Source of the DNA: Candidatus Yanofskybacteria bacterium
GTDB taxonomy: Bacteria; Patescibacteriota; Minisyncoccia; 2-02-FULL-40-12; IGHO2-12-FULL-4
Assembly: GCA_016185525.1 (NCBI GenBank)
Contig: JACPNK010000006.1
Location: forward strand, 22,728 to 86,727
Length of the DNA stretch: 64,000 nucleotides
Reading direction: 5' to 3'
Positions within the stretch are counted from its first letter, which is position 1; each line of letters opens with the position of its first letter. Positions 1 to 63,910 of the stretch are shown here, in pieces. The notes below the pieces were generated by a model. The model was not told the origin of the DNA, did not search any database, and saw only the letters and a list, made by a program, of their open reading frames with translations. The translations under genes and the position numbers were made by a program.

Positions 1-121
1 AGCGGAGCGCGCATAGATCCGTGGGAGATTACCACGTTGATAGGATGCAGGTGTAAGTCCGGTAACGGATTCAGCCGAGCATTACTAATAGATCAATTAA
101 TTCCTTGCAAGATTAAGCCTA
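1..121 (+). rRNA. rrl: 23S rRNA, 3' terminal segment (gene continues upstream of window)
   Basis: Near-exact match to the conserved 23S 3' end (GTTGATAGG..GGTGTAAG..TACTAAT..GATTAAGCCT, cf. E. coli ACGTTGATAGGCCGGGTGTGTAAGCGCAG...GGCTTAACCTT). Confidence 0.75.
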
Positions 122-10600: not shown

Positions 10601-11267
10601 TTCTGATGTTGAAGGACGGGTTGTGGAGATTAAAGAAAGTGCCCGCCAGCACTCCATCAATATTGTTACAACTACAGGCGAGGAGAAATCTTTTACCGCT
10701 CCTTTGGGTCAGGTTTTATGGATCAAAGAGGGCGATGAAATTGTTCCCGGCCAGCAGTTGACTGAAGGACATGTTGACCCCAAAGAGCTTTACACAATTA
10801 CCAAAGACATAAATGCTGTTGCCAACTACATTATTCGTGAAGTTCAAAGCATATATTTTGCCACTGGTGAAGGAATTAACAACAAACACGTTGAGCTGAT
10901 TGTCAGGCAGATGTTTTCCCGAGTCAGGATTATTGATGCCGGAGACACTGATTTGCTTCCGGGAGACATTGTTGAAAGAAGACAGTTCAGAGAGCAAAAC
11001 GATCTTGTCAAAAAAGAAGGCGGAACAGAGGCAACATTTGAGTCTTTTGTTTTGGGCATCAGTAAAGTCGCTCTCTCTACCGAAAGCTTCTTGTCTGCCG
11101 CTTCTTTTCAGGAAACAGCCAGAGTTTTGATTGATTCGGCGATTGTCGGCAAAGAGGACAAACTTCGAGGCCTTAAAGAGAATGTCATTATCGGTCGTCT
11201 TATTCCTGCAGGAACCGGTTATAACGTTGACTTTCAAGATGTGCCGCAGGAACCGGTACAGGAATAG
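7668..11267 (+). CDS. rpoC: DNA-directed RNA polymerase subunit beta'
   Basis: 1199 aa; NADFDGDQMAVHLP catalytic motif; zinc-finger CGKYKRIRYKGIICDRCG. Confidence 0.97.
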   Translation: MNNFTSLKLKIASPEEILEWSYGEVTKPETINYRTQKPERDGLFSEAIFGPVKDFECYCGKYKRIRYKGIICDRCGVEVTRSIVRRERMGHIRLASPVAHIWFLRGVPSKVAVVLDVSLVELERVIYFASYIVMRVNEELKAEAMKKIENEFRSKIKNAKDENEAIRLKEQKDYEKNNLRAIKKYQILSELDFRDLSLKYGEVFEAGIGAEAIKKLLGEIELNDLVKATDNELKATDNPNIRKKMIRRLKLLRGMIRNNIRPEWMILDILPVIPPALRPMVQLDGGRFATADLNDLYRRVINRNNRLKHLLELHAPEVITKNEKRMLQEAVDALIDNSMRRGQTMISASTGQKRALKSLADMLKGKTGRFRQNLLGKRVDYSGRSVIVVGPNLDIDQCGLPKHMALELFKPFVVHKLISAGLAHNIKSANRLIDQQIPEVWQALEESIKDKLVLLNRAPTLHRLSVQAFRPSLIEGKAITIPALPTSAFNADFDGDQMAVHLPLTNEAQKEAKDLMLASHGILKPSTGEPVAAPSKDVVFGCFYLTHPGDNLLGEGKTFSSEEEALLSHNNGFTDLRAKIKIKTDKKIDANELLENGFITTTVGRIIFNRGLPEDFRFVNKTLTKGQLKALEAELLDERGEEETVKFLNTAKNLGFHYATISGVSFAVEDLRAVSDKQSMLDEADQKIEEGRGLYDQGLLTEYERKSKAIEVWTDVKSRLEKMVKQNFKNDDSVFMLVESGARGSWATVNQLAGMRGLFANPAGELIELPVKGSFKEGLSVLEYFLSTHGARKGLVDTALNTAQAGYLTRRLVDVAQDVVVKEKDCKDKDGYVMLTEDGKQIGESLGKRIKGRVILEDVLDKDGEVVIKKGTLISKDLAAKIDSLNLDKIRIRSIIACRAKDGICQYCYGYDLSKNRLVEVGEAVGIVTAQAIGEPGTQLTMRTFHTGGVAGGGDITMGLPRVEEIFEARTPSAKALVSDVEGRVVEIKESARQHSINIVTTTGEEKSFTAPLGQVLWIKEGDEIVPGQQLTEGHVDPKELYTITKDINAVANYIIREVQSIYFATGEGINNKHVELIVRQMFSRVRIIDAGDTDLLPGDIVERRQFREQNDLVKKEGGTEATFESFVLGISKVALSTESFLSAASFQETARVLIDSAIVGKEDKLRGLKENVIIGRLIPAGTGYNVDFQDVPQEPVQE

Positions 11268-11273
11268 AATTCG

Positions 11274-11457
11274 GGAACTTGGCGAACATCACTTCTTTGG
11301 TACGTTCGCTGATTCCAGCCTGCCTGCTGGCAGGCAGGCGGCAGACTCACTCGCTGTTCGCCTGGGTTTTGGCTGGAGTTACAGAATAATTATACTCCAG
11401 CCAACAAAGCAAACCGCAGGCTCACAGCGACCCAGAAGTAATTTTCGCCAAGTTCCC
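11274..11457 (+). ncRNA. structured intergenic element copy A (candidate ncRNA or cis-regulatory RNA)
   Basis: Closing helix GGGAACTTGGCGAA/TTCGCCAAGTTCCC; conserved blocks shared with copy B at 15789-15921; hairpin GGCTGGAGT-loop(TACAGAATAATTAT)-ACTCCAGCC. Confidence 0.45.
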
Positions 11458-14576: not shown

Positions 14577-14712
14577 ATTGACCTAATTGCTCTAATTAAC
14601 CTAATTTCTAAAAAATAACCAATGTCTAATTTTAAAATTGGGATTTAGAAATTATTTAGGTCAATTAGAAATTAGAAAAATTAGAAATTTTAATCGGAGG
14701 GATAAATATATT

Positions 14713-15765
14713 ATGGCAAAGGAAAAAAATAAAGACGGCAAAAGTGCGGTCAGTGAGAACAGTAAAAGTGCCAGCACTGAGAATAGTCGAAGTGTTGACT
14801 TGGCTGTCAAAGAAATTCAGCAAAAATACGGCGACGGGTCAATAATGAAACTGGGCGATGCTCGGAAGGTTGATGTTGACGTTATTCCGACTGGTTCAAT
14901 TTCGCTTGACCTGGCTTTGGGTGTCGGCGGTGTGCCCCGGGGAAGAATGATTGAAATTTACGGACCGGAAAGTTCCGGCAAAACCACTTTGGCTTTGCAT
15001 CTTGTGGCCGAAGTTCAAAAAATGGGCGGAACGGCGGCTTATGTGGACGCTGAACACGCTCTTGATCCGGAATATGCCGGCAGAATTGGCGTAAAAACCA
15101 AAGACTTGCTGATTTCCCAGCCAGACCATGGTGAACAGGCGTTGGAAATAGTTGAGACGCTGGTCCGCTCCGGTGGGATAGATTTGGTGGTGATTGATTC
15201 GGTTGCGGCTTTGACGCCAAGGGCGGAAATTGAAGGGGAGATGGATCAACAGCACATGGGTTTGCAGGCGCGTCTCATGTCGCATGCCCTACGCAAACTC
15301 ACCGGAATTGTTTCAAAGACTAACACCACCGTTGTTTTCATAAACCAGATCAGGCACAAAATCGGAATTATGTTTGGTAATCCGGAAACTACAACCGGTG
15401 GTTTGGCTTTAAAATTTTATTCTTCGGTTAGAATAGAAATTCGCCGGGCGGCGCAAATCCAATCGGGCGAAAAAATTATCGGTAACCGGACTAAAGCAAA
15501 AATTGTAAAAAATAAAGTGGCGGCGCCGTTCAAAGTTGCCGAGTTTGATATTTTGTACAACGAAGGCATCTCGCGTTTGGCAGACTTGGTAAATACTGGA
15601 GTTAATCTGGGCGTGGTTGCCAAATCCGGCAGTTGGTATAACTTTGGCGAACAAAAACTGGGGCAAGGGATTGAGGGTTCTCGCCAATTTCTAAAAGAAA
15701 ATCCTAAGATAGAAAAAGAAATTCTCTCAAGCGTCAAAAAAGCGGCGGCGGTCAAAGAGGCGTAA
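14713..15765 (+). CDS. recA: recombinase RecA
   Basis: [20 protein letters not shown] Walker A; RecA L1/L2 regions; GGAGG RBS upstream of the ATG at 14713 (table ORF starts earlier at 14638). Confidence 0.95.
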
Positions 15766-15788
15766 TTTTTACAAGCTTCGCAGATACA

Positions 15789-15921
15789 GTCTTTTCGGTA
15801 CTTTCGCTGATTCCAGCGATCAGCTCACTCGCTGTTCGTCTGGGTTTCAGAAGGAGTTAAAGAATAATTATACTCCTTCTGACCAAGCAAACCGCAGGCT
15901 CACAGCGACCTCAAAGGCTGT
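15789..15921 (+). ncRNA. structured intergenic element copy B
   Basis: Closing helix GCAGATACAG/CTGTATCTGC; hairpin CAGAAGGAGT-loop(TAAAGAATAATTAT)-ACTCCTTCTG; conserved CAAGCAAACCGCAGGCTCACAGCGACC. Confidence 0.45.
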
Positions 15922-16114
15922 ATCTGCTACGCTTTAGACGACATCTTGCCTGCCAAAATCTCCACTATTGGTTTCAAAGTGATCGGCAGTTACTTTTTAG
16001 AAAAATCTCTAAAGGCCCGACCTTTTCAGAGGACTGTCCTTAAATCTGAAAAAAGGACAGTCCTCGGATCGGACCTTGGTGTTAAAACCCTTGCAAAACA
16101 AGGATTTTAAGGTC

Positions 16115-18537: not shown

Positions 18538-19557
18538 TCAAATTTTTATTTCCACCACGTCGCCGTCTTGGACTATGTAATCTCGGCCGACAAGTTTCAA
18601 GGTGCCGTTTTCGCGTGCTTTGCCCCACGAGCCAGCCTCCACTAACTTTTGCCAATTAATAACTTCTGCTCTAATGAAAAGTTTTTCAAAGTCAGTATGA
18701 ATAGCCCGGGAAGCTTTGGGGATAGGTGTATTTTTGGGCGCGGTCCAGGCCCGGGTTTCGTCTTCCCCCGTGGTTAAGAAGGTGATTAAATCCAGAAGCT
18801 TATAACTTTTGGAAATCAGTTCATCTAAACCGGAGTGTTCCCGGAAGACTTCTGTGAGGTATAAATCTTTTTCTTCCGGAGAGGCTTCAGACAGCAGAAG
18901 TTCAAAATTAGCGGACAAGACGACATATTGTGATTCGCCCATGGCTTTGATTAGCTCCGGTTCCGGTTGCCAGCGGTTTTTAACCTGCTCTTCCGAAGCG
19001 TTTAAAACATATATCACTTTTTTTGAAGCGAGCAGTTCCAATTCCGGCAATCCTGCCTGACCGGCAGACAGGTCTTCATTCTTGTTTTTTTTGGCCTTTC
19101 TTTTTTCTATGGATTGCAAATCGGCCAATGCTAACTCTGTCTTGATTATTTCTATGTCATGAACCGGGTCAACTTTGCTGTGGACGTGAATTATATTCTT
19201 GTCTTCAAAAACTCTTACCACATGAGCGACTGCATCCACCTCTCTGATGTTGGCCAAAAACTTATTGCCCAAACCCTCGCCTTCAGCGGCGCCTTTGATT
19301 AGTCCGGCAATGTCTATGAACTCAATTGCTGTCGGCACTATTTTTTTTGAATGAGAAAGTCCGGCTAGTATTTTCAGTCTTTCATCCGGCACCTCAACTA
19401 CGCCTACATTGGGATCAATCGTCGTAAAGGGGTAGTTGGCAATGGCTATTTGTTTTCCTGCCCCGTGGCCGCCGTCAGGCGACTTTACGGGGTTAGTTAA
19501 GGCCTTAAAGAGGGTGGATTTACCTACATTAGGCAGGCCTACGATTCCGATTTGCAT
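18538..19557 (-). CDS. ychF: ribosome-binding ATPase YchF (Obg-like GTPase family)
   Basis: [22 protein letters not shown]1 motif; C-terminal TGS-like [13 protein letters not shown]. Confidence 0.85.
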
Positions 19558-19683
19558 ATGCGGTGAATATTAGCAAAAATCCAGTAGATACGCCAATTTT
19601 TTGAGCTTGACTTTTTGCTGAAAAGGTATATGATTAAGGTATAGTTAGGATAGTTCCTTTATTTACTACTTGCCCGCTTCGAC
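19541..19683. repeat. direct repeat DR-L (ychF start + promoter region), partner at 23915-24056
   Basis: About 143 bp, roughly 93% identical to 23915-24056; includes the first 17 nt of ychF. Confidence 0.8.
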
Positions 19684-19828
19684 AAGTCGAAGACGAGGCG
19701 AGCGAGCAGTCATAGCCATAAGTTTCTGATACAAATTGGAAGTTTATTGCTATGACTGCCATTCTGGTGGTCATCGCTGCCGCATAGTGCGGCCAAAACT
19801 GCCGGCATAGCGCCGGAAGGAGGAAGTT

Positions 19829-20422
19829 ATGCGTTGGAATCCAGTTGAACAAGTACAGGATGTCGTGAACAAGTTCGGGACCGAGGAGCGCGTCAAGCGT
19901 TTCCAGTCCGGCGAGCTCGTGCTCGTGGAACGGACGGACCCTCGTGCAGTCGCGATGGTCCTCAACTTCGAGCGGAAGGTCTCGGTGGCCAGCCGCCGGT
20001 TCGTCACCGGCGAGAGCTTCACCAAGAGCAATCCCAAGGTGAAGTTTGGCCACATTGACGAGAAGGTCGTCAAGCTTTTTGGCAAGAGCCAGGACGTGCC
20101 GGCCGGCGAGCTGGCCACACACACGCTCTTACTGCCTAAGCACGATCCCGAAATCATGGTCGCTCTTGGACCTCAGTCCAGGCGTTTCATCAAGCTGGGC
20201 CAGTTCTACCAGTTGATCGAAGCGCAGGGCCAGGGCCAGGAAGGCTCCCTTCTCGTCAACGGATGCGCGAACATTGCGTACATTCTTGACGAGAACGGCG
20301 CGCCTTGGGCGGTCAGCGCGTACTGGGGCCCGATCGATGGCGACTGGCGCATGTGCGTTAACTCGGTTGCCCGCCTGCACGCGTGGCTTGCCGGCAGCCG
20401 GGTTCTCTCGCAAGTCGGATAA
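19829..20422 (+). CDS. DGR target protein 1 (variable C-terminus, C-type-lectin/FGE-like fold presumed)
   Basis: GC-rich (~60%) ORF with GGAGG RBS; its last ~35 codons are VR1. Confidence 0.75.
   Translation: MRWNPVEQVQDVVNKFGTEERVKRFQSGELVLVERTDPRAVAMVLNFERKVSVASRRFVTGESFTKSNPKVKFGHIDEKVVKLFGKSQDVPAGELATHTLLLPKHDPEIMVALGPQSRRFIKLGQFYQLIEAQGQGQEGSLLVNGCANIAYILDENGAPWAVSAYWGPIDGDWRMCVNSVARLHAWLAGSRVLSQVG
20304..20410 (+). repeat. DGR variable region VR1
   Basis: 107 bp aligned with TR1 (20701-20807); nearly all mismatches fall where TR1 has A (AAC codons in TR become GGC/CGC/TGC etc.). Confidence 0.8.
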
Positions 20423-20427
20423 GAACT

Positions 20428-20482
20428 GGGTTCCTTGGGAACTTGGTTCTTGGGCCGGCAGTAGCTTCAACGCTGTTGCCGG
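20428..20482 (+). other. GC-rich hairpin downstream of VR1 (DGR cruciform/stem-loop)
   Basis: GGGCCGGCAGTAGCTTCAACGCTGTTGCCGGCTC inverted repeat. Confidence 0.5.
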
Positions 20483-20700
20483 CTCATTTTTATTTCTATA
20501 AAATACAACTTGGATATTAGGCGAATCTGCTGATCTCCAATTGGATATCAGCGGCCGAACTCTAAGCGCGCATTCAGATTGCTATCGGAGCTTAAAAACG
20601 AAGATACTTGGTGCGGAACACTATGTGAGTCAGCTCACGAATTCGATGCAGTCCCGAGAGTATTCAACGGACAGTGGTAATGGTGGTGTTTCGCACAGAG

Positions 20701-20807
20701 CTTGGGCGGTCAACGCGAACTGGAACCCGAACTATGGCGACTGGAACATGAACGTTAACTCGGTTGCCAACCTGAACGAATGGAATGCCGGCAACCAGGT
20801 TCTCTCG
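20701..20807 (+). repeat. DGR template region TR1
   Basis: Asn-codon (AAC) rich: NWNPNYGDWNMNVNSVANLNEWNAGNQ; downstream hairpin AAACTCC/GGAGTTT and a CCAGCCGCC motif. Confidence 0.8.
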
Positions 20808-20820
20808 AAATTCTCTTCGT

Positions 20821-21168
20821 TCAAAAACTCCTTTGCGGAGTTTTTGTTTGTTTTTGCCAGCCGCCGAGCATTTTGCCTATCTCATTCAGATGATTCGACA
20901 ATGTTACATATTTCTTTACATCAAGTATTTCTATTTCCCATGCAATCTGTAATATAAATTTCAACATATCAAATGAGTCCGAGGCCTTGGCAAGATAAAA
21001 TCCTTTTTGTTCACGGTTTTTATGAGCTGCAATAAATAAATGTTCCGTGGTTTCGATAAACAGGTTATCAATTTTTAGACCAATAGTATATCGATTGATT
21101 TTCTCTAATCTAATAAAATATTCATGCCAAACTTTGTAAACCACAATCAACTTTTGGATAATCGGCAA
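20821..21168 (-). CDS. avd: Avd-like accessory variability determinant (four-helix-bundle / 23S rRNA IVS protein family)
   Basis: 115 aa; ...KFILQIAWEIEILDVKKYVTLSNHLNEIGKMLGGWQK is the typical IVS/Avd C-terminus; immediately adjacent to TR1 and the RT. Confidence 0.65.
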   Translation of the reverse strand: MPIIQKLIVVYKVWHEYFIRLEKINRYTIGLKIDNLFIETTEHLFIAAHKNREQKGFYLAKASDSFDMLKFILQIAWEIEILDVKKYVTLSNHLNEIGKMLGGWQKQTKTPQRSF

Positions 21169-21177
21169 AGTAGCGCT

Positions 21178-21187
21178 GGGGGGGGGG
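21178..21187. repeat. G10 homopolymer tract in the avd/RT divergent intergenic region
   Basis: gctggggggggggcgtag. Confidence 0.9.
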
Positions 21188-21232
21188 CGTAGAAGGATTG
21201 AATTTGGTCATAGTTTTGATGAGGTTATTAGT

Positions 21233-22177
21233 TTGGAAAATTTACTGGAATCCTGGAAAGAGTTCCTGAAAGGCAAACGCAAGAGAAAGGATGTCCAGGA
21301 GTTTGGCCTTTTTCTGATGGATAATATTATAGGCCTGCACAACGATCTTGACAATCATACATATAACCACGGGCCATATCAAGCGTTTCGCATAAATGAT
21401 CCCAAACCGAGACAGATACACAAGTCATTGGTCCGTGACCGGTTGCTCCACCATGCTATTTATCGTCAACTCTATCCGTTTTTTGATCGAATGTTTACTG
21501 CCGACTCCTTCTCATGCCGACTTGGCAAGGGGACACACAAAGCATTAAACAGGTTCAGAAGTTTTGCATTCAAAGTCAGCAAAAACAACACCAGGACGTG
21601 TTGGATTTTGAAATGTGATATCAAGAAGTTCTTTGAGAATATTGACCACGAGGTTTTGCTTAGCATCTTAAAAGAATACATCCGTGACCGGAACACTATC
21701 TGGCTTTTAGAGAGAGTGATTTACAGCTTCTCATCCGCTCCAGGTAGGGGATTGCCTCTCGGCAATCTCACCTCGCAGTTGTTCGTGAATATCTATATGA
21801 ACGAATTTGATCAGTTTGTGAAGCACAATTTGAAGGCAAAATACTATATCAGATATGCCGATGACTTTGTGGTCTTGTTTCAAGACAAATCTTGGCTCGA
21901 AGAGATGCTTCCTAAAATGGGTGACTTTCTGGAAGAAAGATTAAAACTTGAACTTCATCCAGACAAGGTTTTTATCAAAACGTTTGCTTCGGGAGTTGAC
22001 TTCCTTGGCTGGGTTCACTTTCCAGATCACAGAGCATTGAGAACGACTACCAAGAAGCGGATGCTTAAAAGGATTAAGGCAAAACAGGATATTAGCACAA
22101 CCAAATCTTATTTGGGACTTATTAGTCATGGAAATGCTAAAAAACTAGAAAAAGAGATATTAAGGATTTCTGAATAA
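21233..22177 (+). CDS. DGR reverse transcriptase
   Basis: 314 aa; RT motifs including GLPLGNLTSQLF (DGR-specific IGxxxSQ) and YIRYADDFVVL (YADD). Confidence 0.85.
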   Translation: MENLLESWKEFLKGKRKRKDVQEFGLFLMDNIIGLHNDLDNHTYNHGPYQAFRINDPKPRQIHKSLVRDRLLHHAIYRQLYPFFDRMFTADSFSCRLGKGTHKALNRFRSFAFKVSKNNTRTCWILKCDIKKFFENIDHEVLLSILKEYIRDRNTIWLLERVIYSFSSAPGRGLPLGNLTSQLFVNIYMNEFDQFVKHNLKAKYYIRYADDFVVLFQDKSWLEEMLPKMGDFLEERLKLELHPDKVFIKTFASGVDFLGWVHFPDHRALRTTTKKRMLKRIKAKQDISTTKSYLGLISHGNAKKLEKEILRISE

Positions 22178-22182
22178 TTTCT

Positions 22183-22272
22183 GTAGAGGGGGAAGTTTTA
22201 TTGTAAACTGAAACGGGATGTATTTGAGCCGGTTATCGTCAAATCCATGTCGCATTGCGTTCCGACTATACC
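22183..22272 (+). repeat. about 90 bp junction element, copy 1 (copies at 23811-23914 and 25389-25507)
   Basis: Shared GGAGGAAGTTTTAYTGTRAAC...TGTCGYATTGCGTTC blocks. Confidence 0.6.
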
Positions 22273-22406
22273 AATCTGGAGCATTTTGGTAATTTATCAT
22301 TTTAAACCCACCTTCTCAAGTTAACTTGCTATCATCAGGATCTTATGATTTAATTCCGATATAATTACTAATGTAAATTTAGTGAGTGTTTGGTAAATTA
22401 TTATTT

Positions 22407-22976
22407 ATGGAAAACGGCTATTTTTATTCACGAAGAGAAAACGTCAACGATTTGTACTATGATGCTATGGAATTGCTTCATGGAAACATTGAGGAGGCCA
22501 GGAAAGCTGAAAAATTATTAGCAAAAGCTCTTGGCCTGGATCCTAATAATATCCAAACGCATATTGGTTTTGCGCATTTGTACGGACGTCTTAAAAATAA
22601 AAAGAAAACAGAAGAACATATCAAGAAGGCCTACGAAGAAACAACTAAGAAATTTCCGGTTTGGCCCAAGCGTATGGAGTGGGGCGACATGGATAATCGG
22701 GCGTATATGAGAGCGATACAATACCGCGCTGATCTTTACGCTGATGATGGAGAAAAAGAAAAAGCCGTAAGTTTATATCGGCTGCTTCTTAAGTTGAATC
22801 CCAACGATAACCAGGGTGCTAGGTACACCATCTCTGGTGTCTATGCCGGAATAAGCGGAAAAGAAATTAATAAAATGTTTGACGAGTGCAACAGGCGACA
22901 AAATTGGGCTAGGCTTGAAGACCTGATCAAAAAACAAAATGCCAAACACAAGTTTTGGAAAGAACCAAGATTTTGA
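22407..22976 (+). CDS. TPR repeat protein
   Basis: TPR-like helical repeats (AEKLLAKALGLDPNN..., LYRLLLKLNPNDNQG); table ORF starts at a GTG at 22386. Confidence 0.5.
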   Translation: MENGYFYSRRENVNDLYYDAMELLHGNIEEARKAEKLLAKALGLDPNNIQTHIGFAHLYGRLKNKKKTEEHIKKAYEETTKKFPVWPKRMEWGDMDNRAYMRAIQYRADLYADDGEKEKAVSLYRLLLKLNPNDNQGARYTISGVYAGISGKEINKMFDECNRRQNWARLEDLIKKQNAKHKFWKEPRF

Positions 22977-23019
22977 GAAGATTGTTGATATCAAATTTCC
23001 TACATGGTATATAATAAAA

Positions 23020-23358
23020 ATGAGTACAATTCATGAGTACCTCATTGATACAGAAGATTATAGAGGCAAGCGGGTAATCTTTACTGAAGCTAAGCGTCTA
23101 GAAAAGTCAGCCCAGCATGCCGAATTAAACAATAAGCAGTTTCTAAAAAATATTGAGCCGACCATTAAAGATCCCGAAGAGGTCTGGCCAGACTATAGTG
23201 ACAAAAATAGAAAAGCATGTTATTATAAGAAATACTCAGCCACTACTTATGTTAAGGTGGTAATTTGGATATATGACAGTCCTTGTCGAGTAGTTACTGC
23301 TTATGAAACTGATAAAATTAAGGAAATGCTATATCCAGAATTAAATCGTCTTAAATAA
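23020..23358 (+). CDS. hypothetical protein
   Basis: ORF; internal ATG with A-rich upstream region, since the table start at 22939 overlaps the previous gene. Confidence 0.4.
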   Translation: MSTIHEYLIDTEDYRGKRVIFTEAKRLEKSAQHAELNNKQFLKNIEPTIKDPEEVWPDYSDKNRKACYYKKYSATTYVKVVIWIYDSPCRVVTAYETDKIKEMLYPELNRLK

Positions 23359-23368
23359 TTATAAAAAC

Positions 23369-23791
23369 ATGACAACTAACATTAAACAAAATAGAGAGTT
23401 TATTGACCTAGCCTCAAATCTCCAAGGATTTATTCAGAAAAACGGTTGGATTAGTAGATACGATCTTGAAAGTGATGCCTTTTCAATTACCACCCCGAAT
23501 TTATCGGAGGACGCTAGAATTCGCTATTTCGATGATGAGATAGCTCTTTATGTTACGAATGACAATAAGATTGAGGGTATCTTTATGGAATACTTCAAGA
23601 GTAATTTTGTCCAACACCATAAAGACCTCAAGCCTGTTTTAGAAAATATAGAAAAAGAACAAGGAAAGAAAGAAATCGGTCTTGTCCAATTAGGTAAAGA
23701 TAAAATACAAAAACTCGCTCCTGACATACAGGAAGCCCTCCAGGTGCTTCTGGCAGAGAAGCTTAATCTAGGATTAAACCAAGCTCGATAG
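23369..23791 (+). CDS. hypothetical protein
   Basis: 140 aa ORF. Confidence 0.45.
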   Translation: MTTNIKQNREFIDLASNLQGFIQKNGWISRYDLESDAFSITTPNLSEDARIRYFDDEIALYVTNDNKIEGIFMEYFKSNFVQHHKDLKPVLENIEKEQGKKEIGLVQLGKDKIQKLAPDIQEALQVLLAEKLNLGLNQAR

Positions 23792-23810
23792 TAGCCTGCT
23801 CAAATAATTG

Positions 23811-23914
23811 CTAAGGATTACCAAATAACTTCTGGACAGGAGGTAATTTTTTTTGAAACTAAAAGGTATCAGTTTTACCGGCATATTACCATAGCTGTAT
23901 CGCATTGCGTTCAT
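23811..23914 (+). repeat. about 90 bp junction element, copy 2
   Basis: CTAAGGATTACCAAATAACTT...TCGCATTGCGTTCAT. Confidence 0.6.
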
Positions 23915-24056
23915 ACGATTCCTATTTGCATATGCGGTGAATATTAGCAAAAATCCAGTAGATACACCAGTTTTTGAACTTGACTTTTTGCTGAAAAGGT
24001 ATATAACTAAAGTATAGTTAGTATAGTTCCTTTATTTACTACTTGCCCGCTTCGAC
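23915..24056. repeat. direct repeat DR-R (remnant ychF promoter + first 6 codons MQIGIV then stop)
   Basis: Matches 19541-19683. Confidence 0.8.
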
Positions 24057-24112
24057 TCCTACTACCGTCTCGTTCGTCCTCGCAGGTAGCAAAAACCTGA
24101 GACTCTTGGTTC

Positions 24113-24361
24113 TTGGACCCCGTTCAGTTTACTGAACGGGGTCGTTTTCTTTGTAGCTTTTCAACTTTAAGCACTTTTACAGGCCTTGCCTGTCAGAATA
24201 CAATGAAATACCTCGCAAACCTGTGCAATCAGACGACCAATTCAAGAAAGTTCTGGCCCAAAACAATGCTTTACCACAGCAATGACCCTGAAGGCGTTGA
24301 AATAACGAGAGCCTTTACGACAAGTTTTGAAAAAGAAACTCTGCCTAAATATAGTGAGTAA
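24113..24361 (+). CDS. hypothetical protein (weak)
   Basis: 82 aa ORF only. Confidence 0.25.
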   Translation: MDPVQFTERGRFLCSFSTLSTFTGLACQNTMKYLANLCNQTTNSRKFWPKTMLYHSNDPEGVEITRAFTTSFEKETLPKYSE

Positions 24362-24543
24362 CTGGGTAGGGTAATCTGCTCTAATCAAAATAAAACCAAC
24401 CAACAAAAAAAACACCCCTCCGAGCCATATGTTGATATCTAATTTTCTATATGGTATATAATGAAGTTAAGGAAAATTTATAGTATAGAGCGTTGGTTAT
24501 AGGTAATGTTGACTTTTCTAGTTTACTAATTTATAATATTGCT

Positions 24544-25388
24544 ATGGTAAAAAATGTCAAAAATACTCTTCATATCGGTATTAAACAACTCCTAAAATTA
24601 GATGATAAGTTGGCGAAGCTGCGTAAGCCTACATCTATTGAGGAGGAGTCTTTGCATGCCCAACACAGATTTGAAGCGACATATTACTCAAACAAGCTTG
24701 AGGGGAATAAACTAACGAAAGAAGAGGCCAGAAAAGCTATTCTATTTAAGTAATTAATGAAACGTCCACTTAATAAACGTGAGTCAGACATATTAGAAGA
24801 AGAGGCCACTGGGAAGCCTCTTCTTCTTTACATAGACTTATCAAACGCTTAGTTCGTAAAAGACTTCCTTTAGAGCTGAGGTTTATTAAAACTGCACACA
24901 AAACTATTTTTGATATTGCTAAACAACCAGAAATCGGAGGCGTGTATCGAAACGACAACAGTCCAGAGTTAAAAAGAATAGATGGAACTACTCTGCCAAT
25001 GACAGATTGGCCCTTAATATCTAACGCAATGGCAGAACTTGATTCAGAACTTAGAGAAAAAACTAAAAATCTTGTGCATCCGAAAACTGAGCAAGGATAT
25101 TCTGAATTGATAATGCTAGCAACTAGACTTTCTCATAAACTGGTCTGTATACACCCCTTTAGAAATGGGAATGGAAGAGCGTCTAGATTATTATTAAATG
25201 CTATTCTTTTAAGAGCGGGCTTATCAGAAATTGCCATTAAAAAATCAAAACCAACATATCTCCGTGCCATGAGACAAGCTGATGATGGTGACTTTTCTCT
25301 TCTAGAGAACCTTGTTGTCAACGGGTTGGTCGAAACTAAAAAAATAAATTACTCAAGTATCCATTTGTCTTACCCATCAGGTCGCTAG
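24544..25388 (+). pseudogene. fic: Fic family protein, disrupted (in-frame TAA at 24754 plus a frameshift before 24850)
   Basis: N-terminal part has SNKLEGNKLTKEEA; C-terminal part has IHPFRNGNGRASR (HPFx[DE]GNGR). The two parts lie in different frames; promoter TTGACT-17-TATAAT at 24509-24537. Confidence 0.7.
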
Positions 25389-25507
25389 CTAAGGATTACC
25401 AAATAACTTTTGAGCAGGAGGAAGTTTTACTGTGAAACGGAATGGCATGAATTTAACTGATGAGCCGCTTGAGCTATGTCGTATTGCGTTCATACAATTC
25501 CGATTTT
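25389..25507 (+). repeat. about 90 bp junction element, copy 3
   Basis: Starts CTAAGGATTACCAAATAACTT like copy 2; ends GTCGTATTGCGTTCATACAATTCCGATTT, resembling the ychF 5' end. Confidence 0.6.
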
Positions 25508-32651: not shown

Positions 32652-34160
32652 ATGAAATATATACTTTACGCTCGTAAATCTACCGAGGAGGATGACCGAC
32701 AAGTGCTTTCGATTCAAGCGCAACTCGAAGAGTTGCAAGAGTATGCCGCCAAAGAAAAACTTGAAATTGTCGCCTCGTTTTGCGAGGCGAAAACCGCAAA
32801 AGAGCCCGGGCGAATTAAATTCGCTGAAATGTTGTCATTGATTGAGAAGGGGAAAGCAGACGGAATTATTTCTTGGCACCCCGATAGATTGGCTCGTAAT
32901 TCTGTGGACGGAGGGAAGATTATTCATTTCGTAGATCGTGGCTTGATTCATTCCCTAAAATTTCCCACTTTCTGGTTCGAGGCAACACCACAAGGTTTGT
33001 TTATGCTTCAGATTGCTTTCGGTCAATCAAAATATTTTGTAGATAATTTGCGAGAGAATGTGAAGCGCGGTTTGCGACAAAAGATACGAAATGGAACATG
33101 GCCCGGTTGGGCTCCGGTTGGCTACCTAAATAACCCTAAAACCCGTGGTATAGACATTGATGTGGACAAAGCACCTAAAGTGCTAAAAATGTTTGAACTG
33201 TATGCCACCGGAGCGCATACGCTCCACTCTCTCGCAAAATGGTGCGATAACAATAACCTACGCGGCAATCTTGGGAAAAAACTTGTTATCGCAAATATAC
33301 AGAAAAATCTACAAAATATTTTCTATCTCGGTTTGATGAAGTGGAAAAGGGAAATTTTTGAGGGAAAACACGAGCCGTTAATCTCAAAGAAACTTTTTGA
33401 TAAATGTCAGGAAGTTATGGCGAAACGCGGTAAAGTGCAGGAGGTTCGCAAACATCATTTTGCTTTTCTTGGCCTTTTAAAATGTGCCTCTTGTGGTTGC
33501 TCAATCACCGGAGAGCGACAGAAAGGACATAATTACTATCGTTGCACGAAAAAGAAAGGGCCATGCCAAGAAAAGCATTATCTCCGCGAGGAAGTGTTAA
33601 CCGAGCAGATCAAAAACTTCTTGCAAAAAGTTTCTTTGTCGAGCCAAGACACCGAGAAAGTTTTGGCGGCGTTGGATAGCGAACAGGATAAAGCACGGCA
33701 AGATGCACAAGGCGAGATTAGTATTTTGAAAGAGCAATTAGGAGAGGTTGAAACAAAACTTCAAAAACTATTAGACATCTATCTTGCCGACACTTTATCC
33801 ACAGAAGAATATGCCGCCAAAAAGAAAAGTTTGCTGTATCAAAAAATGTCTTTGAATGAGAAAATCACCGACTTTGAGACAAAAGGATTGTCTTGGCTCG
33901 AACCGGCTCGTGATTTCGTTTTATCTTTGAATCAAGCCACGAATCTGCTTTCCCCTCCCAATCTTTCTGGAATGACAACATTTCTAAAAAACATCGGCTC
34001 GAACCATGTTTTGCAAAATCGCCAATTCTTTTTTGCCCCGAAAATCCAATACGAATTAGTCGCCGAGCGAAGCGAGGCAAACCTTTCAAACTTGCAATTT
34101 CCTGTCTGGTGCCCAGGGGGAGATTTGAACTCCCACGCTCTTACGAGCACACGGCCCTGA
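32652..34160 (+). CDS. large serine recombinase (integrase-type)
   Basis: N-terminal resolvase domain YARKSTEEDDRQ (catalytic Ser), zinc ribbon CASCGC...CTKKKGPC, coiled-coil; the 3' end reads through att site R into tRNA-Leu, so the true C-terminus is uncertain. Confidence 0.8.
   Translation: MKYILYARKSTEEDDRQVLSIQAQLEELQEYAAKEKLEIVASFCEAKTAKEPGRIKFAEMLSLIEKGKADGIISWHPDRLARNSVDGGKIIHFVDRGLIHSLKFPTFWFEATPQGLFMLQIAFGQSKYFVDNLRENVKRGLRQKIRNGTWPGWAPVGYLNNPKTRGIDIDVDKAPKVLKMFELYATGAHTLHSLAKWCDNNNLRGNLGKKLVIANIQKNLQNIFYLGLMKWKREIFEGKHEPLISKKLFDKCQEVMAKRGKVQEVRKHHFAFLGLLKCASCGCSITGERQKGHNYYRCTKKKGPCQEKHYLREEVLTEQIKNFLQKVSLSSQDTEKVLAALDSEQDKARQDAQGEISILKEQLGEVETKLQKLLDIYLADTLSTEEYAAKKKSLLYQKMSLNEKITDFETKGLSWLEPARDFVLSLNQATNLLSPPNLSGMTTFLKNIGSNHVLQNRQFFFAPKIQYELVAERSEANLSNLQFPVWCPGGDLNSHALTSTRP
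34011..34112. repeat. att-like site R (arm Y inverted + core GGTGC overlapping the tRNA-Leu 3' end)
   Basis: Reverse-complement identity to 32508-32608. Confidence 0.7.
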
Positions 34161-34193
34161 ACCGTGAATGTCTGCCAATTTCATCACCTGGGC
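34107..34193 (-). tRNA. tRNA-Leu (anticodon CAG), CCA encoded
   Basis: GCCCAGG acceptor stem, anticodon stem-loop CACGG-TTCAGGG-CCGTG, long variable arm, T-arm GGGAGTTCAAATCTCCC, 3' CCTGGGCACCA. Confidence 0.85.
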
Positions 34194-35140: not shown

Positions 35141-35297
35141 TTGTTTTTTAGAGTTATGAGTTAGAATTTCTAATTAATCTAATTATTTTAATCAAGCTCC
35201 AAACCCCAATAACTAATAATTGAAATCTTTTTTTGGGATTTGGTAATTGGGAATTGTTTAGATCAATTAGATTAACTAGAAATTAGAAATTTTATTT

Positions 35298-62193: not shown

Positions 62194-63417
62194 ATGCCTA
62201 AAACCAAAAAAATAAAAAATAAAAAACCTTTGAAAAAAAAGAAACCTGCCAAGGCCAAAAAAGCCAAGTTTCATGTTTCAAAAAAACAGAGCAAGCCAAA
62301 GGCAAAACCGGCAAAAAAACCCGCCAAAGTTAAGGTTCCCAAGGAGTTGATTAAAGAAGAAGACATTTTAAAGTTGATTGAAAAGGGTCGTCATCGCGGT
62401 TTTGTTACCGAGTCGGAAATTATGCACACCTTTCCGCATATTGAAAAAGATATTGAGGGATTGGAGAGGCTGTACGAGAGGCTGGAGTCTTCAAACATCA
62501 ACATTATTGAAACGGGCAGAGTCTTTGAACAGGATCGGGCTAAAGAATTTGAGGAAAAGAAAAAATTGGAAACCGAACTTGGCGATATTTCTTCAGACTC
62601 GGTGCAAATGTATTTGCGGGAAATTGGCCAATATCCGCTTTTGCGGGCCGAAGAGGAAGTTGACTTGGCTAAGAAGATTTTAGAAAGCGACGAAGCGGCC
62701 AGACAAAAACTTATTTTATCCAATTTGCGTCTGGTGGTTTCAATCGCTAAAAAATATATCGGGCGTTCGGCAAATTTAACTCTTTTGGATTTAATCCAAG
62801 AGGGTAACATCGGTCTTTCAAAAGCCGTTGAAAAATTTGACTACAAAAGGGGCTACAAATTCTCAACTTATGCAACTTGGTGGATCCGGCAGGCTATTAC
62901 CCGCGCTTTGGCAGACCAGGCCAGAACCATCCGTATTCCAGTGCATATGGTTGAAACGATAAACAAGTATCAGCAAGTGGTCAGAAGGTTGGTGCAGGAT
63001 TTGGGGCGGGAGCCTTTGCCGGAAGAAGTCGCTATGGAAATGGGGATGGATATAGACAAAATCAGGCATATTATTAAAATTTCCCAAGATACAATTCCTT
63101 TGGAAACTCCGGTGGGCGATGACGACGAAGACAGCATGCTGGCGGATTTTATTCCTGACGAAGACAGCATCTCGCCGGCGGTTTCAGCGGCGCGCAGGAT
63201 TTTGAAGGATCATCTGGTTGAGATTATTGCTGACCTGACTCCGCGTGAACAAAAAATTCTTGAGATGAGATTTGGCTTGAATGATGGCGTTCTGCATACT
63301 CTTGAAGAAGTCGGCAAAGTTTTTGCCGTTACCCGCGAACGCATCCGACAAATTGAAGCGAAGGCGTTAGAGAAAATCAGACAGCATCATAAGGCGGAGA
63401 AGCTTAAAGGCTATTAG
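62194..63417 (+). CDS. rpoD: RNA polymerase sigma factor RpoD (sigma-70) with lysine-rich N-terminus
   Basis: Regions 2-4: [38 protein letters not shown]. Confidence 0.92.
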
Positions 63418-63638
63418 CCTTTAAGCTTCGGAGTCCAGCCCTTTCTAAGACTTTAAAGAAAGAGCTGTGGCAGATAAGCTTAAGGGATATTAGTGAAATT
63501 TCTAATTTCCCCGTAAAGGGCCAGTGGCCCCACGGGGCTTTACTGGCTAATTAACCTAATTTCTAAATTCTAAACGAACGCCTATTTGTAAAAACACTGA
63601 AAATAGCGTAAATTTGTCTTAGTTTGAAAATTAAATAT

Positions 63639-63910
63639 TCCCCGGTAGCTCAGCGGTAGAGCGGCTCGCTGTGAAATAACGCAGCTACCTAGAGAAATCT
63701 AGGATGAAAAACTTTGGGATAACGGTGAAACCTTTTTTAAAATGGTAACACCGTGGGAACCACGTAAAATGCTAAGGCATCACGTGGGCGCCGTAGAGAC
63801 TAGATACCGAAGCACCCAACAGTAGGGTGGTGATATAGTCCATCCCACTACGAAAGTAGTGGACAAATGTAACGAGAAGGTCGTAGGTTCGATCCCTACC
63901 CGGGGAGCCA
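63639..63910 (+). tRNA. tRNA (tentatively Asn, anticodon GUU after splicing) interrupted by a group I intron
   Basis: 5' exon TCCCCGGTAGCTCAGCGGTAGAGCGGCTCGCTGT; 3' exon TAACGAGAAGGTCGTAGGTTCGATCCCTACCCGGGGAGCCA; acceptor halves pair perfectly. Confidence 0.6.
63673..63869 (+). ncRNA. group I intron (197 nt) in the tRNA anticodon loop
   Basis: Follows a U in the exon and ends in G; contains the R-like GTAGAGACTAGA and S element GATATAGTCC. Confidence 0.55.

Follow-up and report, generated by a model that had tools for sequence, protein, structure and literature searches.

Open reading frame-less repeats that are dispersed over intergenic regions have been described from several bacterial groups, such as bcr1 in the Bacillus cereus group, ERIC in the Enterobacteriaceae, Correia in Neisseria and BOX/RUP in the pneumococcus, and these transcribed, MITE-like repeats are the nearest known kind to the element described here. 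Like this element, they often occur at gene 3' ends, measure 100-200 bp, fold stably, possess inverted ends that form a long helix, and vary between related strains. bcr1 is reported to keep a double-stranded RNA structure by means of compensatory changes and ERIC to alter the stability of upstream mRNA (reviewed in PMC3184786); dispersed intergenic copies with helices that are kept by compensatory changes are a trait of our element as well. The known repeats are co-transcribed with genes, and for the studied element orientation and position point to the same. There are also clear differences. bcr1, ERIC, Correia and BOX are characterized by duplicated target sites (TA or 5 bp) and by terminal inverted repeats (TIRs) that are conserved throughout each family, neither of which was seen in our element, and they are simple foldbacks, whereas the element branches at two junctions and has conserved loops and a domain that only some members carry. 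Its long forms are, furthermore, retained at orthologous sites despite saturated synonymous divergence, its orientation is strictly gene-sense, and its host belongs to a CPR lineage with a tiny genome.

Other systems resemble it in fewer respects. REP/BIME and REPIN-RAYT sequences are also extragenic palindromes that occur after stop codons or between cistrons, and REP/BIME sequences are transcribed and can stabilise the upstream mRNA. However, REPs are simple hairpins of 20-40 nt and REPINs are plain long hairpins, unlike the multi-branched element, and in REPIN-RAYT systems the RAYT gene is flanked by the same repeat, whereas our element is absent from the flanks of the Y1 transposase genes in the loci L022 and L006 (see below). 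HEARO and other omega RNAs (IscB-TnpB, IS200/IS605) and their ORF-less derivatives are, like the element, multi-copy, mobile, 150-250 nt long and covarying, and non-autonomous elements carry them, but HEARO and related Rfam models give no match to it. Omega RNAs go with a tnpB or iscB gene, adjacent or elsewhere in the genome, and according to the gene tables of the loci neither adjoins any copy of the element; they also have a free guide end, whereas both ends of the element are paired in its closing helix P1, and the ends of IS200/IS605 are subterminal hairpins instead of inverted termini. Orphan motif RNAs such as raiA, OLE and ROOL share with it a covarying complex fold, an unknown function and a restriction to certain lineages, but they usually occur as a single copy with their own promoter and terminator, whereas the element is multi-copy, appears to reside inside the transcription units of other genes and shows signs of mobility.

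A comparison with Rfam 15 at the gathering threshold recovered from the window, i.e., the whole 64 kb stretch of DNA that was analysed, only the end of a 23S rRNA, a 5S rRNA, one tRNA and a group I intron. With the threshold relaxed to E<=10, the short form of the element (copy A) reached at best 16.9 bits, where the gathering score is 60, and a long-form relative produced only hairpin-like miRNA noise; the loci L004, L006 and L008 also gave no match. In the Rfam scan that the original prediction had called for, the short and long forms of the element thus match no family. No description of the element was found in the literature either, and the family is previously undescribed. Of the known RNAs, the 23S rRNA is represented by its 3' end at the very start of the window (1-109), the 5S rRNA (171-260) is unusually short, with 41 model positions replaced by 11 nt, and the group I intron (63663-63862; 55.4 bits) is located close to the end of the window, just past rpoD (62194-63417). 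Patescibacteria are reported to have frequent group I introns in their tRNA genes (PMC13011429).

That a structured element occurs twice in the window, after rpoC and after recA, as originally predicted, is borne out by exact sequence blocks: the 22-mer AAACCGCAGGCTCACAGCGACC has a count of 2 where shuffles expect 0.00, and the 15-mer CTCACTCGCTGTTCG occurs twice versus 0.07 expected from shuffles. The repeat finder (family D4) aligned copy A and copy B with 87% identity across an 87-nt core. The predicted folding energies are -95.1 kcal/mol for copy A and -51.4 kcal/mol for copy B, and MFE z-scores of -10.4, -5.3 and -14.8 relative to shuffled controls, the first two of which belong to copies A and B, respectively, support the fold. 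For further searches two covariance models were used, R1, which was made from nine short-form copies, and R2, a shorter model made from divergent members. A scan of the window with R2 added no third copy, and no remnants of older copies were found in the flanks of the window.

A single pattern scan of metagenomes yielded six contigs with the element, and a scan of GTDB genomes yielded a Paceibacterota MAG, a Yanofskybacteria MAG and a contig labelled Saccharibacteria, in addition to one chance match. With R1, divergent members came to light both within these loci and in contigs of relatives that were anchored on recA, and the inventory comprises six metagenome contigs, three GTDB genomes and six recA-anchored relatives, with ca. 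20 copies beyond the window. R2 recovered all divergent members and added a remote variant in Yanofskybacteria RIFCSPLOWO2_01_FULL_49_25. The window, L014 and L008 contain two copies each, L009 and L022 three, and L011, L017, L023, L024, L001-L006 and L010 a single one; L019, L020 and L025 have none. Judged from these sequences, the hosts are Yanofskybacteria and related Paceibacteria (Patescibacteria/CPR), with the element in intergenic regions. The window belongs here as well, as its RecA matches a protein from a Candidatus Yanofskybacteria MAG at 100% identity. Scans of viral contigs with three patterns gave 0 matches, and six-frame translations of the element, compared with 5.8 billion proteins in a search for mis-called ORFs, had no matches.

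The members of this family are 160-240 nt long and share one fold, which the covariation described below demonstrates. In all 19 copies the closing helix P1 joins both ends over 22-30 bp; its sequence is variable and its inner end is U-rich. Inside P1 the short helix P2 (GG/CC) opens a three-way junction (P2/P3/P4), from which the hairpin P3 emerges with a covarying stem and a conserved loop, (U)CCAGCG. A conserved junction strand, CUCACU, is followed by a coaxial rod of P4 (CGCUGU/ACAGCG) and P5 (GYCUG-GGUUU/AAACC-G-CAGGC), capped by the hairpin P6, the loop of which usually ends in AAUUAUAC, and by the bulge ACC/AAGCAA. Long forms (210-240 nt) possess an extra domain, P7, which sits in this bulge precisely where ACC would adjoin (A/G)AGCAA, with an outer stem and an inner mini-stem that both covary and with the conserved flanks AUCUUAU...AUGGGCUG; both window copies are short forms without P7. 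The core is sequence-invariant, in contrast to the free covariation of the helices P1, P3 and P6 at the periphery, and the loop and junction motifs are conserved across the whole family. Two tertiary or alternative pairings were considered and rejected. A kissing interaction or pseudoknot that would join CCAGC of the P3 loop to GCUG of the P7 loop is lost in L014y and L022a, and short forms have no P7; a switch in which the P3 loop and the P4 3' strand compete for CGCUG lacks the necessary complementarity in long forms.

Copy A, a short form whose P3 loop carries 20 inserted nt, runs from 11273 to 11457 on the + strand (159.8 bits with R1, 66 bits with R2) and starts 5 nt past the rpoC stop codon (TAG, ending at 11267). 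Copy B, a canonical short form on the same strand (194.4 bits with R1), starts 7 nt past the recA stop codon (TAA, ending at 15765) and covers 15773-15934. The limits proposed before, 11274-11457 and 15789-15921, were thus nearly right for A and too short for B. P1 is formed in copy A by the arms GGGAACTTGGCGAACATCACTTCT (11273-11296) and AGAAGTAATTTTCGCCAAGTTCCC (11434-11457), and in copy B by AAGCTTCGCAGATACAGTCTTT (15773-15794) and AAAGGCTGTATCTGCTACGCTT (15913-15934). P3 of copy B is the hairpin GCUGAU-UCCAGCG-AUCAGC (15806-15824), with the loop CCAGCG that is kept family-wide; in the P3 region of copy A (11308-11346) this loop is split (CCAGC|G) by the palindrome CTGCCTGCTGGCAGGCAGGC (11320-11339), an insertion also present in L010, another Yanofskybacteria genome. 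The junction and the 5' strands of P4 and P5 follow at 11347-11369 in copy A, as (C)UCACU, CGCTGT (11352-11357) and GCCTGGGTTT (11360-11369), and at 15825-15847 in copy B, as UCACU, CGCTGT and GTCTGGGTTT. P6 consists of UGGCUGGAGU and ACUCCAGCCA around the conserved loop UACAGAAUAAUUAU in copy A (11370-11403) and of CAGAAGGAGU and ACUCCUUCUG around UAAAGAAUAAUUAU in copy B (15848-15881). The remaining 3' part contains, in copy A, the bulge ACAAAGC and the 3' strands of P5 (AAACCGCAGGC), P4 (ACAGCG) and P2 (ACC) at 11404-11432, and, in copy B, the bulge ACCAAGC, which corresponds to the P7 site of long forms, and the 3' strands of the same helices at 15882-15910.

Every helix named in the original prediction as differing between the copies yet complementary is indeed present and complementary in both. 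The blocks that it regarded as single-stranded are conserved, but several of them pair with each other as P4 and P5, and the variable internal hairpin that it noted in copy A does exist, as the palindromic insertion within the P3 loop.

Compensatory changes are found throughout this fold. For the nine short forms RNAalifold predicted 55 pairs, 21 of which show compensatory double changes. When 17 distinct sequences were aligned to R1, 94.5% of the cells were paired and both sides had changed in 42 of the 55 pairs; none of 500 shuffles attained even one of five measures, and pairing fell to 31-47% once the partners were slid. Since this alignment is fitted to the model, the count was repeated on a plain MAFFT alignment of ten divergent members, in which 19 of 29 pairs had changed on both sides and 91.5% were paired versus 37-50% after sliding. 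It follows from these two counts that the structure is under constraint, and copies A and B are not a pair of recent duplicates. The suggestion of a conserved RNA structure is, therefore, supported as far as secondary structure and compensatory changes are concerned, while its action as an RNA is something that we infer. The covariance search recommended at the time recovered divergent members in relatives, and an absence of further covarying homologs, named as the outcome that would speak against the idea, did not occur, given the ca. 20 more copies and the 42 of 55 double-changed pairs.

The kind of non-canonical pairs provides a less uniform picture. Over all helices, ca. 23 G.U and ca. 33 A.C combinations were counted on the sense strand. 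In P1, across all 19 copies, A.C outnumbers G.U by 24 to 8, the reverse of the usual RNA pattern, whereas the inner helices P4-P7 have 15 G.U and 6 A.C. Mutation bias fails to explain the excess of A.C since synonymous sites on the sense strand are T- and C-rich, which should favour G.U. The DNA or the antisense strand may, consequently, still have a role, at least for P1.

The element recurs next to the same genes in different genomes. It is located after rpoC in the window (copy A), L014 and L022, after recA in the window (copy B), L009 and L022, between rpsF and ssb in L009 and L023, and between ftsK and recA in L017, L021 and L022, with a short form at this last site in L009. At four-fold degenerate sites of recA these genomes share only 33-58% identity, which is essentially saturation. 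Still, the core of the ftsK-recA copies of L017 and L022 is 93% identical and the P1 arms have diverged with compensation, which, in view of the saturated synonymous sites, speaks for purifying selection both on the sequence of the core and on pairing. In the window, the ftsK-recA gap holds AT-rich repeats at the place where relatives have a long-form element. These intergenic repeats, CTAATTAACCTAATTTCTAAA and TTAGAAATTAGAAA, occur at 14592-14692 (upstream of recA), 35240-35294 and 63547-63592. A second, different repeat (CACTTTCYTT..AGAT...CAAGCCGACAAAAAT...) was noticed in L014 (11010-11230), L020 (4295-4500), L011 (2540-2640) and L022 (4785-4860); it fills the gap after recA or rpoC in some relatives, sometimes beside the studied element and sometimes replacing it.

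With co-directional neighbours the element lies on the strand of the genes at all 15 places (ca. ten distinct site classes), and in L009 and L014 its orientation flips along with the genes within one contig; it thus tracks transcription and not the direction of replication. It usually starts 0-9 nt past the upstream stop codon, and the upstream genes include rpoC, recA, ftsK, rpsF and ychF. Some copies fill the entire intercistronic gap and end 8-18 nt before the next start codon (rpsF-ssb, rplI-rpmA and upstream of topA). Elsewhere a terminator-like hairpin follows 3' of the element (L014, 6777-6803; L022, 5131-5158 and 10944-10962), with a promoter-like site beyond this terminator, a strong one in L022, and in the window promoter-like sequences occur between the element and the next gene. 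The start just past the stop codon, the gap-filling copies and the separate, later terminator all suggest that the element would be part of the transcription unit of the upstream gene. Exceptions are a copy after a terminator in L006/L008 and the copies of L004, L024 and L008 (1272-1483), which lie between divergent genes; in L022, the gene that follows the recA copy is convergent. At the examined loci no consistent promoter or terminator belonging to the element itself was found, and in the window a terminator scan called none at the element ends, with no T-tract after P1. A candidate promoter inside P6 (TTGGCT/TTCAGA-16/17-TATACT on the sense strand, accompanied by an antisense TATAAT) has 9 of 12 matches, but the scan returned 12 sites versus 6.9 expected, the spacing is forced by the geometry of the hairpin, and a terminator directly follows in several loci; an internal promoter is thus not supported.

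The downstream genes are heterogeneous and comprise small membrane ORFs, recA, ssb, rpmA and topA. This bears on the earlier observation that each window copy precedes the gene of a small membrane protein with two transmembrane segments, a link that we reject: the two ORFs are unrelated to each other and are not conserved downstream. Since other genes occupy this position in relatives, the association with small membrane-protein genes is coincidental.

What the original prediction had missed is that the element belongs to a family of interspersed repeats that is partly mobile and comes in a short and a long form. Short forms at unrelated sites in different genomes have identical termini, AAGCTTCG...CTACGCTT, and nearly the same P1, from which it follows that the short form moves as a unit; the 5' terminus AAGCTTCG of copy B is common to L001, L004, L005, L006 and L009c. 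Short forms occupy sites where relatives carry long forms, and when the window is compared with L009, L017, L019 and L020, a given site may hold the element in one genome and lack it, or hold another form of it, in the next. Directly 5' of a complete short form in L006 there is a lone 5' arm that belonged to an older element, GCTTCGCCAATACTGCTTTTTCCGG (2933-2960); it is identical in 25 of 26 nt to the rpsF-ssb copy of L009, and a matching 3' arm occurs nowhere in the locus. The P1 arms (22-30 bp) represent terminal inverted repeats, the sequence of which is not conserved between subfamilies. The flanks of 11 short or intermediate copies revealed no target-site duplication, direct repeat or consistent TA, and a conserved insertion tetranucleotide was not convincing at the examined junctions.

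No transposase or parent IS with matching TIRs was found in the window (20 ORFs scanned) or in the loci of the relatives. Y1 transposase genes (RAYT/IS200-like, PF01797, 26.7 and 32 bits) are present in L022 (6400-7106) and L006 (4480-5262, equivalent to 7300-8000 in L008). The Y1 gene of L022 has its own palindrome, CCACTTGGAAAC-N4-GTTTCCAAGTGG, on both sides, which is unrelated to the element and represents a REP-RAYT arrangement in Patescibacteria. A Y1/RAYT protein was, therefore, rejected as the cognate enzyme, as these genes have their own, different flanking palindromes in L022 and L006 and the window contains no Y1 gene. The window does contain a 314-aa reverse transcriptase (21233-22177; RVT_1, E 4e-25) in a typical arrangement of a diversity-generating retroelement (DGR): the region 19829-22177 resembles such an element, with an ORF (19829-20422) that ends in a VR-like repeat (20304-20416) and a TR-like copy (20701-20813; 81% identical) ahead of the reverse transcriptase gene. 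Repeats were also observed at 19540-19683 and 23914-24056 (94-95% identity), together with a triple repeat at 22159, 23810 and 25388 (region 19540-25506). A large serine recombinase (32652-34160) overlaps a tRNA-Leu(cag) gene on the minus strand (34107-34193; region 32652-34193); the recombinase and the nearby repeats may represent an integrated element.

How, then, should the element be interpreted? The reading that we favour, with about even chances, is a cis RNA module that would be co-transcribed with its neighbours and that, in addition, behaves like a repeat. It would be transcribed within the flanking mRNA, either between two cistrons, as a spacer, or as a 3' UTR that precedes the terminator, and would act there in cis. 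The length-conserved but sequence-free P1 might serve as a double-strand-specific (RNase III-type) determinant of processing or stability, and the conserved core might be the binding site of a factor that acts in trans or might be set free as a small RNA; these roles of P1 and of the core are the least supported parts of the reading. The short form, including both window copies, would be a younger deletion derivative that spread as a unit to new sites and to sites of long forms. What speaks against such a module is that the usual RNA signature, G.U in excess of A.C, is missing, which it leaves unexplained, that read-through is doubtful for a few copies (L006/L008, L004, L024 and L008 1272-1483), and that the fold exceeds in complexity what a stability element would require. 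Two functions that the original prediction had put forward fare worse. The position directly past the stop codons of rpoC, recA, ftsK, rpsF and ychF and the very stable closing helix would suit a structured intrinsic terminator or transcriptional insulator of the upstream gene, but there is no T-run after P1, the scan calls nothing at the element ends, canonical terminator-like hairpins of their own follow the element in L014 and L022, and copies such as those between rpsF and ssb lie inside operons, 8 nt before the next cistron; we regard this as the least probable of the interpretations. Only marginally less improbable is a cis-regulatory leader, riboswitch-like or an attenuator, for the downstream gene. 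The element does end 8-35 nt before the start codons of topA (L005), rpmA (L002/L003), ssb (L009/L023) and recA (L009/L017/L022), and recA, ssb and topA all function in DNA metabolism, but the downstream genes are otherwise unrelated, terminator- and/or promoter-like sites intervene before the next gene in the window, L009, L014, L022 and L006, the gene after the recA copy of L022 points the other way, and no conserved alternative pairing of an expression platform was found; the complementarity of P3 loop and P4 in short forms is lost in long forms.

The signs of mobility raise the question whether the element is a selfish, non-autonomous DNA repeat (MITE, REPIN or palindrome) with hairpins that serve its mobilisation as DNA, in single strands or a cruciform, by an enzyme acting in trans, the RNA structure being a by-product. 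Movement of the short form with conserved ends among unrelated sites and genomes, the varying occupancy of sites between the window and L009, L017, L019 and L020, the Y1 (IS200/RAYT-like) genes in two related loci, the location of the L006 element between a terminator and a promoter, and the lack of a G.U excess with its reversal in P1, which one would predict where both strands, or the bottom one, are important, would all fit. Nevertheless, we think this rather unlikely: ca. 11 short-form junctions lack a target-site duplication, the termini differ between subfamilies, unlike TIRs recognised by a transposase, the RAYT-like genes carry their own unrelated palindromes, and the window has neither a Y1 gene nor a transposase among the 20 ORFs scanned. 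Moreover, orientation follows the strand of the genes and not replication, and long forms with asymmetric loops and a multi-branched fold have been conserved at orthologous sites far past neutral divergence. A free-standing functional RNA, i.e., a trans-acting sRNA, an RNP component or a self-cleaving ribozyme that is present in multiple copies and liberated from host transcripts, so that the flanking genes are irrelevant, seems improbable. An invariant core with covarying P1, P3 and P6 is the pattern of a ribozyme or protein-binding RNA, P1 unites both termini, a trait of excised RNAs, a single genome region can hold several copies, and some copies (L004, L006) are located outside obvious upstream transcription units. 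Yet even at E<=10 there is no match to a ribozyme or sRNA in Rfam, a consistent promoter or terminator of its own is lacking, and the conserved hexamers inside P6 that resemble a promoter are weak and do not exceed what chance would give. A similarly slim chance is given to an RNA-dependent mobile or catalytic RNA, i.e., a compact ribozyme or RNP RNA that spreads via its own transcript (for instance by insertion into RNA and subsequent copying back into DNA), or an abundant small RNA excised at P1. If true, this would explain the sense orientation, the unit bounded by P1, the lack of duplications and of a transposase, and the invariant core, and it would constitute a new, CPR-specific class of RNA elements.

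Genomes of CPR/Patescibacteria measure ca. 1 Mb and contain very little non-coding DNA. A strongly structured, multi-copy family that occupies the few intergenic gaps by rpoC, recA, ssb and ribosomal-protein genes, and that is kept there across deep divergence, is, therefore, either a part of the post-transcriptional machinery that matters to the cell or a genomic parasite that has done unusually well in minimal genomes. To our knowledge, almost nothing is known about the RNA biology of the CPR. With a consensus, covariance models and ca. 20 examples, the element provides a defined, testable RNA target and a marker for recombination and mobility in these uncultivated lineages.
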